Assembly: GCF_011386835.1 (NCBI RefSeq)
Contig: NC_088791.1
Coordinates: 206,274,001 to 206,338,000 of the forward strand
Direction: 5' to 3'
Length of the DNA stretch: 64,000 bases
Source: Chrysemys picta bellii
Lineage: Eukaryota
Every line of letters starts with the position of its first letter. Position 1 is the stretch's first letter. A program made the position numbers and the translations under genes. The notes below the pieces were generated by a model. That model saw nothing but the letters and a program-made list of their open reading frames with translations, did no database searches and was not told the DNA's origin. This document shows positions 15,775 through 22,430 of the stretch, piece after piece.

Positions 15775-16726
15775 GTGAACTGAAGAAAGAGACAGAGGGC
15801 AGATTCACAAAGGGATTTAGGCACCTAACTGCCACTTTGGGCACCTAAATCCAAAATTTAGGTGTCATTGGCATCACAAAACCACTGCTCAGCTGTCACT
15901 TAAAGTCCCTGGGCATCTAAGTTTCTGCCAATAAAGCCCCTGAAGTGCCTAAATTGACACTGCCCAACAGCTTGGTGCCTAAGCCCTACTGGGATTCGCA
16001 AATTAGGTGTTCCTCAGAGGCCACTCAAGACAATTTGCTGCCTTCCTCCTACACTCTTGAACACAGGTTCTCAACCTGGGCAGACTTAGTTGGGGGGCAT
16101 AGCAAGCCTTCTGATGGTTTGGTGGTTACGGTAGGCATTGGGAGGGAAGCACTAGGTTACAGTGCCACTCACTCAGGTTTGGCCCAGCTGTCCCTCCATC
16201 ATAACGGGGATGGCCATTGGAATTTGAGTGAGTGGTGTTGTAACCTCGAGCGTGAGATCGCAGTGCCACTCAGGATTTGTTTGTCTATTCCTGCTGCCCT
16301 AGGCAGAATCTGCCACCCAAGACCCCTGCCTAGTTTGCCTATAGCTAGCACAGCCCCTGTGTTCCCCACATACCCTGCAGTTTAGGCCCAATCCAGTACA
16401 CATGCTCTGAGAACATCTAAACCCACACAAAATGGCAGCAGGAGCTGCTGGTGTCCCTCCATAGCTTTTAGCTCAGTGGTTAGAGTATTCACCCAGGCTG
16501 CTGGTGTCCCTCCATAGCTTTTAGCTCAGTGGTTAGAGTATTCACCCAGGCTGTGGGGGTCAATTTTCACCTCTGCCTGATGTGGAAGGTGGGGAGGCTC
16601 AAGTTCAAATCCCTTCTCCACAAGAGTGCTCTAATCACTGGGCTACAGGGTGGTTTAGGGCTGGTTGCTCTCAGTCTCTCCTGTTGAAGCAGACATTGGG
16701 CTAGAGAGAGAGTTGGAATGACCCAA
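15775..16726. repeat. Turtle interspersed repeat with tRNA-like A/B-box pieces; host of the provirus, apparently continuing at 22352-22430
   Basis: TTAGGCACCTAA motifs, AGCTCAGTGGTTAGAG, GGCTCAAGTTCAAATCCC; right flank TCTATAGCCCAGCAATTAGGGAACTCACC is of the same type. Confidence 0.5.
16444..16553. repeat. Perfect 53-bp tandem duplication
   Basis: GCTGCTGGTGTCCCTCCATAGCTTTTAGCTCAGTGGTTAGAGTATTCACCCAG at 16444-16496 and 16497-16549. Confidence 0.95.
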
Positions 16727-17295
16727 TGTTAGGCTCTGATAGAGGCCTCTCTACGGGATAGGAGAGCAGGCAGATATCAGACACAGTGTTGGTATATAAT
16801 ACTCTAAATATTTTTATGGATTACAATATAAACCCCACTCACTCCACATTCACACTCCTTTCATACCACACCAGAATCTGAAGATCTGAAAGAATCCCGA
16901 TGGCTAGTCAAAATTCAGTCCAATCACAAGGCCTGGGGAGTCCCACGTTACACGCCTCTTCTTTTTCAGGACTCTGAGACAGTGTCTAACTCCAACTTCA
17001 GCTATAGCAAACAACCTTTTTTATAGACCAGCCCCTTGCATCATTAGCTCTTTGTCTAAGTCTTTCATCCATAATTCCAGAAGAGAGGTTCCGGGCAGGC
17101 CGCCATAATCCAAGACATTCCATTTCCTCTTATGGACATGACAAAGTTTGTTTTGCACAGACAATTCTTGACTGCTCATAACCTTAAATCCTTGCTTCAG
17201 CTGCCAGCATGCAACTCACATACTCATGTCAAGCATACAGCATTTATAGTAGGCCCAGATGGCCTATAGCGTATTCCAACATATACATCACAACA
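16727..17295 (-). repeat. 3' LTR (569 bp)
   Basis: TGTT...AACA termini; aligns with 21797-22351; TATA (minus) at ~17019-17025; polyA signal reads CATAAA (16813-16818). Confidence 0.96.
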
Positions 17296-17342: not shown

Positions 17343-20049
17343 TTATAATTTTGCAAGCAGCTCAGCTTTATATAGTTCTCATTCCAAAACTGCTTGTCAT
17401 TTTCTTATTTGACAGTACAAACACAGCATGACAAACATTAATAGAATCATTGACATGAACAATATAACAATAGGATACAATGCCTCATTCAGGAGGGCTG
17501 TAGCACTGGGACACCATTCCTTAGAAACATTGTACCAATGGTGGACTGTCAATTCTTCCCCTTCTTTTCCTAATTTTAATATTTGACCATTATGCAACAA
17601 GATACTTATCTTTCCCAGCTAGGCAGATTTAGATACATCCTTTGCATATTGTTTTATTTTTTTTCACTTTTATCAACCAATTCCTCCCATTGTTCCCAAG
17701 GTACCCCTAAGTCAAAGGACCAGTCCCCATCTTTTGGTTCCCAAATGATTTCCTTTTTTAAGAATAAGGGTCCCCGATAAACAATTCCTTCAATAATAAC
17801 CTCTGTTACATTACATTTGCATGACTCGATTGGACCTTTTTCTGTCATATCTCCCCAAAATATATATTTTTCAGTGGTCACAACACAAATGCACCCATTG
17901 CCTAAATCAAACACTCTTGTGCCATTGGGGCTAAATACTGTATTATACAATGTCCACTTGAATTATTTGGAGGACATACCTCTAAAGAACAAGTTAGCTC
18001 TGGGCACATCCATTCATTTTGCCTGCACGCCTCACAACGTTTTACCAATTCCACTAATTTATAGCCCCCCTCTTCCTGAATCAAATGTCTTCCCCTTATT
18101 TCTATTTGCCATAATTCTCTGTTCATAATCTTTGGCAGCATCCCGGCCATTGCCGCTCTTTTCTTTTTTCCAGTGTTATCCTGCCCTTCCAATCCCCTTT
18201 TAGAGTGGTCTGATTCCAATTAAACCCAAGGTGTTTCTTCCATCCTATAATTCGTTGTCTCTATATATGGGAGTCTTTGAACAACTCAAAGGGTCATTGC
18301 CCATTACTCAGTATATTGACTATCCTCTCTATATACCGTATCCCATAAGCTTGAATCTGTACACATAGTATTGCTAATGCAGTCGTGTTATTAATTTCTG
18401 ACATACTCAATAAATTAGCATTTAAAGATGCTTCCAAGGCTTGTATTTGTTTTACTTGGACCACTACATTCCTTATTCCTGGCGCTGATAATGTGCCAAC
18501 ATTTTGTATTACATGCGTATGTATGGCTCCCAAAATCTCACCCAACGTTGACATTTTCTTTTGTAATGTCTCAATAACAAATGAACTCAACACCCCAACC
18601 CCAGCGCCAATGCCACCCACAATATACTCTCTGATACCTCTTTTACTTCTTTTAGCTCCATCTCCCCATTGTTGTTGCCACGTTAGTAATAGAGGCAAGG
18701 CATATGGCATACACTCTGAATGTTGTGCACTCACATCTAATTGTGACCCCTCCAGCCAGATCGTTTGGTGCACAATAGTTGGGGCTTCAATTACTTCCCC
18801 CTTCATCTGCCATAATTCTTGGTGCTGTTTTATTTACTGGTATTTGATTAAGAAACATGAAATACCTACCATATCACCAGGGCCCTCCCTAGCTATTCTG
18901 GGGCCCTACGCAACCCCCCCAAGGGTGTGTGTGTGGGGGGGGGCAGGCCTCTGCAGAGGAGGAAGCGGGGGGGCTGGCCCCAGGCCTCTGCGGGAGAGGA
19001 GCAGGCCCCAGGTCTCTGTGGGAGGCTGGCCCCAGGCCTCCGCAGGGGTTGGGGCAAGGAGCAGGCCCCAGGCCTCCATGGTGGGGCTGGCTTGGTCGGC
19101 AGGGGGGAACCACCCCCCCAGCACTCACCAGTGGCATGGCTGGGGCCGGGTCGCTGCACTCCTGCTGCTGGTGAGTGCAGCCCCGGCCCTGCTGCAGAGC
19201 TCAGGGGAGTGAGGGTGGGGCTGGGCAGGGGTAGGAAGAGGCAGGACTGGGGCAGGGTGGGGGCGGAGCAGGGGCAGGAGCCCTGGGGAAGAGCCGTAGT
19301 AGGGGCTAGAGCAGCTACGTACTTTGAGTAGGGAATGACGGCCCTGCATATCCCCAAAAGTATATTCCCCTATTGATTTTCCTGAAACAGCTTAATTTCA
19401 CCATTATGGAATTTACCATAGCGTCATACCTCCACACTTCGAAAGCCGCTGACTCATTCCATCCCACATGGACATTAGCCAATTCTTTTTCATAAATCAC
19501 ATCCAGGGTAGTTACATTAAATCCCAAATTCCAAAAAGTGCAATTCAGGATGCTTATATTTGGGTTATTTTCATTATAACTAAATTTAAATGTCAACCAG
19601 TGCTCCCCTTTTATAATATAAAAATACCTCCATTGCTTCTCCAAGTCCTCTGGTTTTAAATATTCCCATATTAAATTCTTACCATTTTCCCACCATATTT
19701 CAAATTTTACCTCAAAGGGTTTCCACTCACATCTGTCTTTGTTTGGTCCCATTTTCTCCATTGTGTCCCATTGATAGTCGAACGTATTATTCCCTTTAAT
19801 CCATACCTCCATTTTAGAGGTGCTCCCATGTGTATATCCTTGTACCCCTAAACTTTCCCAGATACTTACAAAACATAAAAAACAGAAACCATATCCCCAC
19901 CCTTCAGGGTGCCATTGACTTTCCCATTTTTCCCGAATCATTGCTGACAATGTTAGAACTTTTACTTTAAAATCAATTTTCATTCTCTGCAAACTTTCCG
20001 CTTTTCTGGTTCCACTTTTGCACACCTCTTGTGTTGAGGTCATGGTCAT
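17343..20049 (-). pseudogene. env: Envelope glycoprotein (class I fusion), disrupted by MITE, frameshifts and stops
   Basis: Hydrophobic signal GYGFCFLCFVSIW; sequons NNT, NIS, NCT, NVT, NES, NKT; RSKR|GIREYIVGGIGAGVGVLSSF; heptad-like region; Cys-rich CPELTCSLEVC, GCICV, SCKC; HHWYNVSKEWCPSATALLN then TM anchor YPIVILFMSMILLMFVMLCLYC. Confidence 0.92.
18878..19346. mobile_element. hAT-type MITE inserted in env
   Basis: CAGGGCC/GGCCCTG termini; 8-bp TSD CATATCAC (18870-18877) vs CATATCCC (19347-19354); removing it restores the frame ...YFWGY|GRYFMFLNQ. Confidence 0.92.
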
Positions 20050-20311
20050 TATTCCATAAGAATAATGTCCAGTGCCTCTGACTCTACTACCCCAAGCACT
20101 TTTGTTAAGCCTTTGCTAAACTCTTCTGTCTTCACTTGAGCTCTGGTATTCTTCTTCCTAAAATGTAAATGACACAAAACAATCTTTCCACCAGACAAAT
20201 AAAGCAAAGCAAAGCGAATATAAGCAGCAAACCAATTGCAAAAGTTGTTGCACCATATCCACACTCCCAATCCAGGATCCGTTTGGGATATCCTCCAGTG
20301 CAGTTGGACAT
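20049..20311 (-). CDS. Putative accessory small single-pass membrane protein (59 aa as is; ~87 aa if one frameshift is repaired)
   Basis: Starts 13 nt after a TTTTGGTTTGTTTTACAG acceptor; MSNCTGGYPKRILDWECGYG-ATTFAIGLLLIFALLCFICLV; second frame RKKNTRAQ...DIILME* ends in TAATG overlapping the env ATG. Confidence 0.5.
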
Positions 20312-20324
20312 TCCACTTTTATTT

Positions 20325-20343
20325 CTGTAAAACAAACCAAAAG
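20325..20343 (-). promoter_or_regulatory. Candidate splice acceptor just after the pol stop
   Basis: Pyrimidine-rich tract + ACAG (AG at 20326-20325), ~25 nt after pol stop TAG at 20351-20349. Confidence 0.6.
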
Positions 20344-20348
20344 GTTAT

Positions 20349-21776
20349 CTAATCTTTGGGCCATACCTTTAATTGTGATGTGTGTACTCATTTCCCCTTT
20401 TTTTTCTTTGTTAATTTGCACTACAGTGAGGGAAATTTTATTCATAATTGAAAATGGTCCAACACATTTTGATTCTAAGACATGATCTTTTGGTGTCAGC
20501 CTCAGATACATCCCCTATCCCCTATGTTCCATAATTTCGTATCTTGGGTGGCCTGTGAGTCCCTATATTCTCTTGCTTTCTCAGTTGCATCTGTTAATCT
20601 AAATTCCATTTTCTTAAGTTCAGTCAGTAATTCTTTAACCCATTGAGTAACCGATACTTCCTCTACATCCCCTTTTCCTTGGTACAGTAGAGGGCCCCAC
20701 AGTCTCATAGGCCTTCCAAAGAGAATTTGGTATGGCTGGTACCCTGTACTTCACCGATCACTACTTTGAATTGCTGCCAACATCAATGGTAATTTCTCTG
20801 CTCAATCTTTACCTGTTTCCTGTACCACCTTTCATAGAGCCTTCTTAATAGTTTGATTCATTTTCTCTACTGATCCTGATGATTGAGGACGGTAAGGAAT
20901 GCGTAACTGCTGCTTTAGTCCTAAAACTTTCAATAAGCTTTTCACTACTTCCCCCACAAAATGCGGTCCATTTTCCAAATCAATTGGTCTCAGAGTTCCA
21001 TACCTGCTAAAAACAACTTCCCATAGTTTCTTAGCGGTTGTCTCTGCAGTATGGTTCTGGATAGGAATCGCCTTCACCCATCCAGAAAAAGAATCCTCCA
21101 CCACCAGCAAATACTGATTTCCTCTGGAAGTTTTTGGCAACTTATCAATATAGTCCATTTGTATCCTACTCCACGGCCCTACAATTCTCTGATGTAACAA
21201 TGGCCCTGCACTAGGTGTTCTATTGCTGTCTGCCATGCATTTTATACAATTTTTAACAAATCTTTCTACATCTTCCTGTACTCTAGGTCAAATTCCAATT
21301 TGTTTTACCTTAAAAAGCATATTCTCTATTCCTTGATGTGCCATGGAGTGGCAGACATTAATAATTTCTTCCCTTTGGGTTTTTTCAGGTACCCACTTTA
21401 CCTCTCCTGTCTTTTTGTTCACTGCATATCCCCCTGTACCCTCCAGTTTCCCCATTTTTCTTCTGGCTTAATCTCCTGCACTATAGCCTGAGCTCTAGTA
21501 ACCACCGCAATTCCCAAAAGCTCTTTTGCTGCTTCCACCCTGGCCAAGCTATCAGCATTATCATTCCAGAATTTCTCGCTTTTGATGGCCTTTATGTTGT
21601 ACCTTCAGTTTCACTGGATTCCTCTTTAACCAATTATAAATTCATTTCCAGTCCTTCTTTTGGACCACACTTTTCCCCTCAGCTGTTTCCCAATTATTTC
21701 TTTTCCAAGTCCCAATCCAATAAAACAATCCTTGTACTACAAAATCTGAATCTATATAAACGTTCAGGCAATCCAC
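20349..21776 (-). pseudogene. pol: pol remnant: RNase H C-half + integrase
   Basis: RH: NVYIDSDFVVQG..W..NNWETAEGK..KGHQ..FWNDNADSLAR; linker AVVTRAQ; HHCC CHSMAHQG..KNCIKC; core QMDYID..VVEDSFSG..DLENGPHF..PYRPQSSGSVEKMNQTIK; STGYQPYQILFGR; GPF; ends K(W)VHTSQLKVWPKD*. About 11 stops/frameshifts by hand. Confidence 0.96.
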
Positions 21777-21794
21777 TGCCCACATTCTCCACCA
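21777..21794 (-). promoter_or_regulatory. Primer binding site, tRNA-Ala(AGC)
   Basis: TGGTGGAGAATGTGGGCA, 2 nt (TT) from the LTR end; 17/18 complementary to the vertebrate tRNA-Ala-AGC 3' end TGCCCGCATTCTCCACCA; mismatch at a CpG. Confidence 0.85.
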
Positions 21795-21796
21795 AA

Positions 21797-22351
21797 TGTT
21801 AGGCTCTGATAGAGGCCTCCCTACAGGATGGGGGAGCAGGCAGATACCAGACACAGTGATATAAAATACTCTAAATATTTTTATTGATTACAGGATAAAC
21901 CCCACTCACTCCACATTCACACTCCTTTCATACTACACCAGAATCTGAAGATCTGAAGGAAATCCCAATGGCCAGTCGAAATTCAGTCTGATCACAAGGC
22001 CTGGGGAGCCCCATGTTACACGCCTCTTCTTTTTCAGGACTCTGGGTCGGTGTCTGACTCTAACCTTTTTTATACACCAGACTATTGCGTCATTAGCTCT
22101 TTGTCTGTTTACTAAGCCTTTCATCCATAATTCCAGAAGAGCAGTTCCAGGCAGGCCGCCATAATCCAAGACATTCCATTTCCTCTTATGGGCATGATAA
22201 AGTTTGTTTTGCACAGACAATGCTTGAGCAGTTATAACCTTAAATCCTTGCTTCAGCTGCCAGCACGCTACTCACATACTGATATCAAGCATATAGCATT
22301 TATAATAGGCCCATATGGCCTATAGCGTATTGCAACATATACATTACAACA
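21797..22351 (-). repeat. 5' LTR (555 bp)
   Basis: TGTT...AACA termini; AATAAA (minus) 21880-21885; TATAAAA (minus) ~22068-22074; adjacent PBS. Confidence 0.96.
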
Positions 22352-22360
22352 TCTATAGCC

Positions 22361-22430
22361 CAGCAATTAGGGAACTCACCTGGGAGGTGTGTGACCAGCA
22401 ATTAAGGAACTCACCTGGGAGGTGTGTGAC
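22361..22430. repeat. 35-bp tandem duplication
   Basis: CAGCAATTA(G/A)GGAACTCACCTGGGAGGTGTGTGAC x2, one mismatch. Confidence 0.95.

Follow-up and report, generated by a model that had tools for sequence, protein, structure and literature searches.

Among retroviruses, the known small membrane accessory protein encoded upstream of env is, to our knowledge, Vpu. In HIV-1 this small ORF and env are arranged on one RNA, and Vpu is found in HIV-1 and some SIVs (PMC8402909). Influenza C CM2 and influenza B NB are type III membrane proteins whose ectodomains contain a sequon and cysteines and which may be palmitoylated (PMC6679168), and a title in the reference list of that paper gives influenza B NB a bicistronic mRNA in common with a surface glycoprotein. 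FAST proteins have ~100-200 residues and endodomains of ~40-140, with a cystine noose and a dicysteine in p10 (PMC7412057). ORF1 of snakehead retrovirus encodes 52 aa (PMC12193657), while fish foamy-like ERVs carry pol-env ORFs that are under purifying selection and in which no TM motifs were detected (PMC5210030). Here we describe an endogenous retrovirus (ERV) family of Chrysemys picta bellii in which the gap between pol and env probably contains a genuine accessory gene, which lies on a spliced RNA that reads on into env and is predicted to encode a single-pass membrane protein of ~60-70 residues.

The window is the whole stretch of DNA that was analysed (64,000 nucleotides), and the ERV lies on its minus strand between two LTRs that are 86.1% alike (583 columns). 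Deletion has removed the leader, gag, protease and RT from the window copy, which retains integrase and a broken env. The features, in window coordinates, are as follows.

21797 to 22351, minus strand: 5' LTR, a direct repeat of 16727-17295, with loose read ends at 21797 and 22351
21777 to 21794, minus strand: primer-binding site, from sequence; RNase H begins almost directly after it
20349 to 21767, minus strand: broken pol remnant (RNase H, integrase), from Pfam RNase_H, Integrase_H2C2 and rve and from tblastn with a related pol
21002 to 21004, minus strand: splice donor within integrase; 21004 is the last exon base, joined to 20324 with GT..AG ends
20324 to 20326, minus strand: splice acceptor, AG at 20326-20325; the exon begins at 20324, 13 nt ahead of the ATG
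20132 to 20311, minus strand: small ORF, 59 codons plus stop, from frame, copy alignment, selection tests and hydropathy
20189 to 20251, minus strand: predicted transmembrane helix, residues 21-41, from hydropathy (2.97) and AlphaFold2 (pLDDT 91-97, residues 21-50)
19843 to 20049, minus strand: env start and signal-peptide-like segment; ATG 20049, second ATG 20043, hydropathy peak 1.7
17397 to 20049, minus strand: broken env (SU, RSKR cleavage site, TM), from similarity to two related Env proteins
16727 to 17295, minus strand: 3' LTR, polypurine tract just before it; direct repeat of the 5' LTR

The window env is split by a GC-rich insertion at about 18880-19345. The LTR flanks (16722-16726 and 22352-22356) show no target-site duplication; the 5' edge may have been rearranged or have received an insertion. 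ARAGORN, run at 10 of the 454 places matching the primer-binding site, returned no tRNA genes. Sequencing runs of 8 organisms contain 0.60-0.96 of the words in the stretch, so the insertion is common to several species. A DNA search of the 2.37 Gb genome yielded at least 24 copies, including that of the window, and 24 were compared (L001-L023 and L067); L024 was left out because its match ends after pol, and L068 was rejected as a chance match with neither pol nor env nearby. The copies form two lineages, one consisting of the window copy and L002 and the other of the rest, connected by a branch of 0.20.

Longer copies encode an RT with YVDD as well as the two RNase H domains. For a related intact Env, the sole match among 3985 candidates is a bird protein of 873 aa (22% over 537 aa, E 2e-19), which the window env also matches (E 4e-8). 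Ovex1 ORF3 is comparable in size and anatomy to this bird Env (PMC2717909), and it is on size and features rather than by name that we infer the bird protein to be Ovex1. CrocERV37-39 and SpeV have been placed with Ovex1 (PMC4299795), and the host virus is probably Ovex1/SpeV-related, judging by these similarities. In the portions of PMC2717909 available, no pol-env ORF is described for Ovex1, unlike the window virus. A first guess, that the virus was a lokiretrovirus, was set aside: the lokiretrovirus Env resembles paramyxovirus F, PF00523 (PMC7947760), which has no match in the window env fragments or the related intact Env, PDB searches returned no F protein, and the Loki RT motifs in the supplement of that paper differ by eye. 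An RT tree containing no named reference left the placement ambiguous. The search for window env SU gave 0 of 223 candidate proteins, and viral contigs queried with integrase gave no matches. The best RT matches among solved structures were two unnamed protease-RT-RNase H chains and Pr125Pol chains, the latter of which we take to be foamy-virus enzymes.

Two related families occur in the same genome. One (L139:6186-6590, minus strand, and L149-L160) has between pol and env a different conserved ORF of 134-135 aa, which has an acceptor to itself and matches no Pfam family; this family also has a separate acceptor directly ahead of env, and its Env SU matches an Ig V-set domain (E 1e-5). The other (L129-L134) is young, with LTRs 99.8-99.9% alike, a stop in frame between gag and pol and a Gag in which no zinc-knuckle Pfam match was found; its 180-nt pol-env gap contains an acceptor and then a short ATG-less frame before env, but no ORF with an ATG. 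A bird protein of 1254 aa (P0003) carries a diverged RT-RNase H-integrase that is related to the group of the window virus, and is possibly a co-opted pol.

In the window, the minus-strand frame opening at ATG 20311, MSNCTGGYPKRILDWECGYGATTFAIGLLLIFALLCFICLVERLFCVIYILGRRIPELK, is unbroken to the TGA at 20134-20132, without a frameshift. Its product consists of a 20-residue N-terminal segment (N3-C4-T5, C17), a hydrophobic helix and a short tail with cysteines and basic residues. The initial annotation of this DNA had proposed that the pol-env gap holds a small membrane accessory ORF. This is supported, and selection and hydropathy now settle its reading frame as that of ATG 20311. The landmarks that were given (pol stop 20351-20349, env ATG 20049, acceptor AG 20326-20325, ATG 20311) are correct, and the NCT sequon, Cys4, Cys17, the 21-residue hydrophobic stretch and the juxtamembrane Cys are all found in the sequence. 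The ORF that it drew at 20049..20311 starts where stated and is shorter, given its stop at 20134-20132, and the ATG, described as lying in a good context, lies in a moderate one (G at -3, T at +4). A frameshift near 20160 had been assumed as well, leading into a polybasic RKKNTR and an amphipathic tail that ends at env. None of this is supported in the window copy: L002 and the window copy are of equal length near 20160, and orthologous contigs from three of four sequencing runs are ungapped there (the fourth spans 20021-20184 only, and the count refers to the other three). RKKNTR belongs to a separate frame (RKKNTR...DIILME) that is ATG-less and unconserved and meets a stop two codons past the acceptor in both copies of the window lineage. 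The distance from ATG to env is 262 in the window copy versus 257 in L010 and L012, so a tail reaching env is not conserved in frame.

All three minus frames had been called open and hydrophobic. Frame B is indeed open too, but hydrophobicity is unequal, with best 19-residue Kyte-Doolittle means of 2.97 in the ATG frame and 2.04 and 1.41 in the others, and a true transmembrane stretch is present only in the ATG 20311 frame. Across the ORF, the sister copy L002 equals the window copy in length; it carries a private stop at codon 15 and extends nine codons further at the end, giving 68 codons versus 59 in the window copy. In 12 aligned natural frames, N3, C17, C36 and C39 are invariant and C4 is nearly so, although these frames were selected as stop-free and their invariance alone is no proof of selection. 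C4 and C17 are present together in 11 of the 12 rows, and a Cys-Cys pair follows the helix in 8. The C-side is more positively charged than the N-side in 8/12 copies, so charge favours an N-out orientation. AlphaFold2 models the product as a single long helix, which adds little, and a tetramer prediction, with a score of 0.01, was uninformative.

Sequencing reads bear on how the ORF is expressed. Four of 24 runs were mapped to 19350-22400, and a 400-nt contig of one of them (X16, presumed to be RNA, although none of the 24 is recorded as such) joins 21004 to 20324 and extends to 19999, and thus contains both the small ORF and the env start; the acceptor predicted by the initial annotation is therefore used in this contig. 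With 4 differences over the exon, the contig derives from the orthologous copy; contigs from a further two runs, with 6 and 7 differences, are ungapped over the ORF. The donor GT is present in 2/2 copies of the window lineage and in 0/14 other copies covering the site. Given this lineage-specific donor and the deletion of the leader, the integrase donor may be a cryptic site that stands in for the lost leader. A 5-codon upstream ORF lies ahead of the joint.

Could a longer spliced protein, with its first exon upstream, instead end in the small ORF as its last exon, the ATG being internal and the topology perhaps different? The joint seen in the contig keeps the frame of integrase (phase 2 plus 13 nt). 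Acceptor and ATG are 13 nt apart in the window lineage and 10 nt apart in the larger one, so that the lineages differ by exactly 3, and no in-frame stop lies between acceptor and ATG. An in-frame joint is expected by chance 1 time in 3, however; the ATG is conserved, the donor is missing in the other lineage and, with the leader deleted from the window copy, may itself be cryptic. We regard this as highly improbable.

We consider the ATG 20311 frame likely to be coding, on evidence from shuffles, copies and substitutions. When the whole gap was shuffled, 0.02% of 5000 trials produced an ORF that begins at the first ATG, has 54 or more codons and reaches a 19-residue hydropathy of 2.5 or more; shuffling 30-nt blocks produced one in 0.24% of 5000 (range over shuffles 0.02-0.4%). 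Both thresholds were set post hoc, when the ORF was already known. The initial annotation had suggested aligning many copies, and the ATG 20311 frame is kept across the two lineages. The ATG is retained in 21/24 copies and the acceptor AG in 16/24. A 154-nt core has identical length in 15 of the 24 copies, is in frame in 19, and is both in frame and stop-free in 10. Among the 19 in-frame cores, 10 are followed by an end in the same frame, of an IPELK/ELEQR type that occurs in both lineages, while 6 run into frame B and 3 into the third; all nine other-frame ends are in the larger lineage, where the length of an A-run varies.

Selection was assessed with 17 copies of the larger lineage, excluding 5 hypermutated copies, and by counting only differences common within each lineage, as having arisen during viral replication. 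Between lineages, dN/dS is 0.19 in the ATG frame (Fisher P 0.002) and 0.37 and 0.50 in the other gap frames (P 0.07, 0.18). For comparison, in-frame controls gave 0.06-0.08 for integrase and 0.14 for env SU, and off-frame controls 1.1-2.5 for two long integrase stretches and 0.86-1.57 for env SU. The ATG frame has a pN of 0.10, close to the 0.09 of env SU, with 0.15 and 0.19 (not significant) in the other frames. Because all three gap frames had dN/dS below 1, positions were permuted with substitution types kept; the ATG frame, of which only 54 codons are testable, gave P 0.044, 0.025 and 0.017 in three non-independent versions, the other frames 0.58-0.96, and controls of equal length at most 0.0004. 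The third-position bias (4.3/4.1/8.0) is weaker than that of integrase (8.2/5.2/39.4). Amino acid identity across lineages is 0.65 in the ATG frame versus 0.49 and 0.51, and stop codons number 7/1001 in the ATG frame, none common to two copies, against 70/981 and 13/983 (frame B) in the others. The 8 differences in orthologous contigs, a number too small for a test, divide into 4 synonymous and 4 nonsynonymous changes in the ATG frame; in frame B all 8 are nonsynonymous. Taken from these comparisons, the signal of selection is consistent but moderate, weaker than in integrase.

The main competitor to a coding ORF is a non-coding gap, a U-rich splicing-control region with two acceptors in which the hydrophobic frame is a by-product of U-richness. 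A possible second acceptor does lie inside the ORF (window 20165-20150, TTTTAG/G followed by GAA repeats) in both lineages, and one related family has, as noted, an acceptor directly before env; dN/dS below 1 in every frame and the openness of frame B would also fit. The synonymous excess, on the other hand, is confined to one frame, block shuffles that preserve U-richness seldom yield such an ORF, the ATG is kept in 21/24 copies, and the observed transcript takes the first acceptor and reads through the second, near 20160. We therefore judge a non-coding gap rather improbable.

The five excluded copies (L017, L018, L019, L020 and L067, 5/24) are G-to-A hypermutated on the viral plus strand, with changes at 64-96% of GA sites, 23-67% of GG and at most 18% of GC or GT; two control copies have changes at 4-9% of their GA and GG sites. 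The pattern looks like APOBEC-type editing.

It had been stated beforehand that the proposal would fall if the region were simply the 5' part of env, and this alternative was rejected. The first or second env ATG is found in 24/24 copies, and Env has a signal-like hydrophobic segment of its own near residues 53-69, directly ahead of SU. Nor does the ORF resemble the bird Env of 873 aa at its N-terminus (hhalign probability 0.3%; HMM -3 bits, below shuffles). The Env leader is ~35 residues longer in the window lineage than in the other (window 20049-19900), and most copies of both lineages have a two-codon ORF (window 20055-20047) whose stop overlaps the env ATG (TAATG) and which may tune env translation. 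A single-sequence fold of Env had a pLDDT of 36 and was unusable.

The leader peptide of foamy viruses exemplifies a further arrangement, in which the small ORF would be a detached or conditionally joined Env leader that reaches env, in the larger lineage, by slippage on the A-run. The A-run is variable in length and frame B continues into env in L010 and L012; moreover, Ovex1 ORF3 begins 11 bp past an acceptor, has an N-terminal hydrophobic region and, in the portions available, is given no clear signal peptide (PMC2717909). This arrangement nonetheless appears very remote, as the window lineage has no A-run, most other copies share a stop ahead of env, the env ATG and signal-like segment are separate from the ORF, and the N-termini show no similarity.

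Returning to an accessory gene as the preferred explanation, the ORF resembles vpu as a small single-pass retroviral ORF directly upstream of env and on the same spliced RNA (one contig, 20324-19999). It differs in its 20-residue ectodomain with cysteines and sequon, in belonging to a non-lentiviral virus and in not overlapping env, and both the DSGxxS phosphodegron and the two cytosolic helices of Vpu are absent in 12/12 aligned copies. Its predicted product is like CM2 and NB in being type III, with a single helix, sites for possible palmitoylation and an ectodomain of ~20 residues in which a sequon and cysteines occur, but has a much shorter tail, lacks YxxxK and HxxxW and comes from another virus order. 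Neither of these pore motifs of M2, BM2 and CM2 occurs in the helix of the 12 aligned copies. Viroporins in general have 60-120 aa and 1-3 TM helices, and the ORF, with one helix, is at the lower size bound. The snakehead ORF1, compared by description only, is likewise a small accessory ORF; it is carried by a sub-genomic RNA, and its virus branches deeply among retroviruses. The fish foamy-like ERV ORFs and the KIT-ligand capture of CrocERV29 occupy the same slot, as large ORFs or captured host genes.

Likeness to viroporins, as originally suggested, thus stands as anatomy only, and most of the resemblance to FAST proteins is lost because the frameshift, RKKNTR motif and amphipathic tail are unsupported. 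As a FAST-type cell-cell fusogen, the product would have an ectodomain within the limit of <40 residues and two cysteines 13 apart, with putative bonding, and the CC after the helix recalls p10. But with 59-68 residues and a tail of <30 it falls short of FAST proteins in size, and the polybasic and amphipathic features are wanting: acidic residues follow the helix, beginning with E42, merely 2-3 basic residues come 12 positions on, residues 42-56 have a net charge of -2 to +3 and a hydrophobic moment of 0.4-0.6, and the polybasic stretch cited lies in another frame. A fusogen is, of all the readings weighed here, scarcely credible.

Searches with the small ORF returned no matches among 1.84 billion representative proteins, no Pfam family at E<=1 (the Vpu family included), none at E<=0.001 in a viral fold library and no relatives in the two related families of the same genome; 256 pattern matches in metagenome contigs gave 0 confirmed. 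The best ESM Atlas score was 0.81, with SH, M2 and NB at 0.75-0.77; these are leads only, with no sequence similarity shown. The gene had been thought undescribed in this lineage, and literature searches on snakehead, Loki and Ovex1 viruses, turtle and reptile ERVs, accessory ORFs and viroporins likewise yielded no description, though subscription papers or Repbase could hold a precedent.

What the protein does is suggested by its anatomy. The helix would insert without a signal peptide, N-terminus outside (type III), Asn3 would be glycosylated, Cys4 and Cys17 would form disulfides, probably between subunits as in influenza CM2, and the cysteines after the helix would be palmitoylated. Env would be translated from the same RNA by leaky scanning, as for HIV-1 vpu/env, given an ATG in moderate context and a scarcity of strong AUGs ahead of env. 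The protein would then act in the secretory pathway and at the plasma membrane beside Env, aiding particle release or Env maturation. Tentatively, it may do so as a weak channel of the CM2/NB type, although the helix has neither the His/Trp nor the YxxxK pore motif; helix-helix contact with a host membrane protein seems less likely, and the remaining probability goes to other roles. That a deep-branching reptile retrovirus independently evolved a Vpu-like glycosylated, disulfide-linked channel or restriction-factor antagonist, co-translated with Env, is somewhat doubtful. The presence of another conserved ORF in the same slot of a related family counts in favour of an accessory gene.

The copies are old and mostly broken, yet they offer a concrete protein for the study of reptile retrovirus-host conflict. 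If the gene is genuine, small membrane genes upstream of env would have arisen more than once, this one unrelated to Vpu, and viruses of the Ovex1/SpeV type, a poorly studied group, would have had complex genomes with a swappable accessory slot, which in one related family is filled by a different ORF of 135 aa and in the other is empty. On the bolder reading, of an independently evolved Vpu-like gene in a virus family whose copies bear heavy G-to-A editing by the host and whose relatives fill the slot with unrelated genes, complex accessory-gene conflict would extend to non-lentiviral reptile retroviruses.
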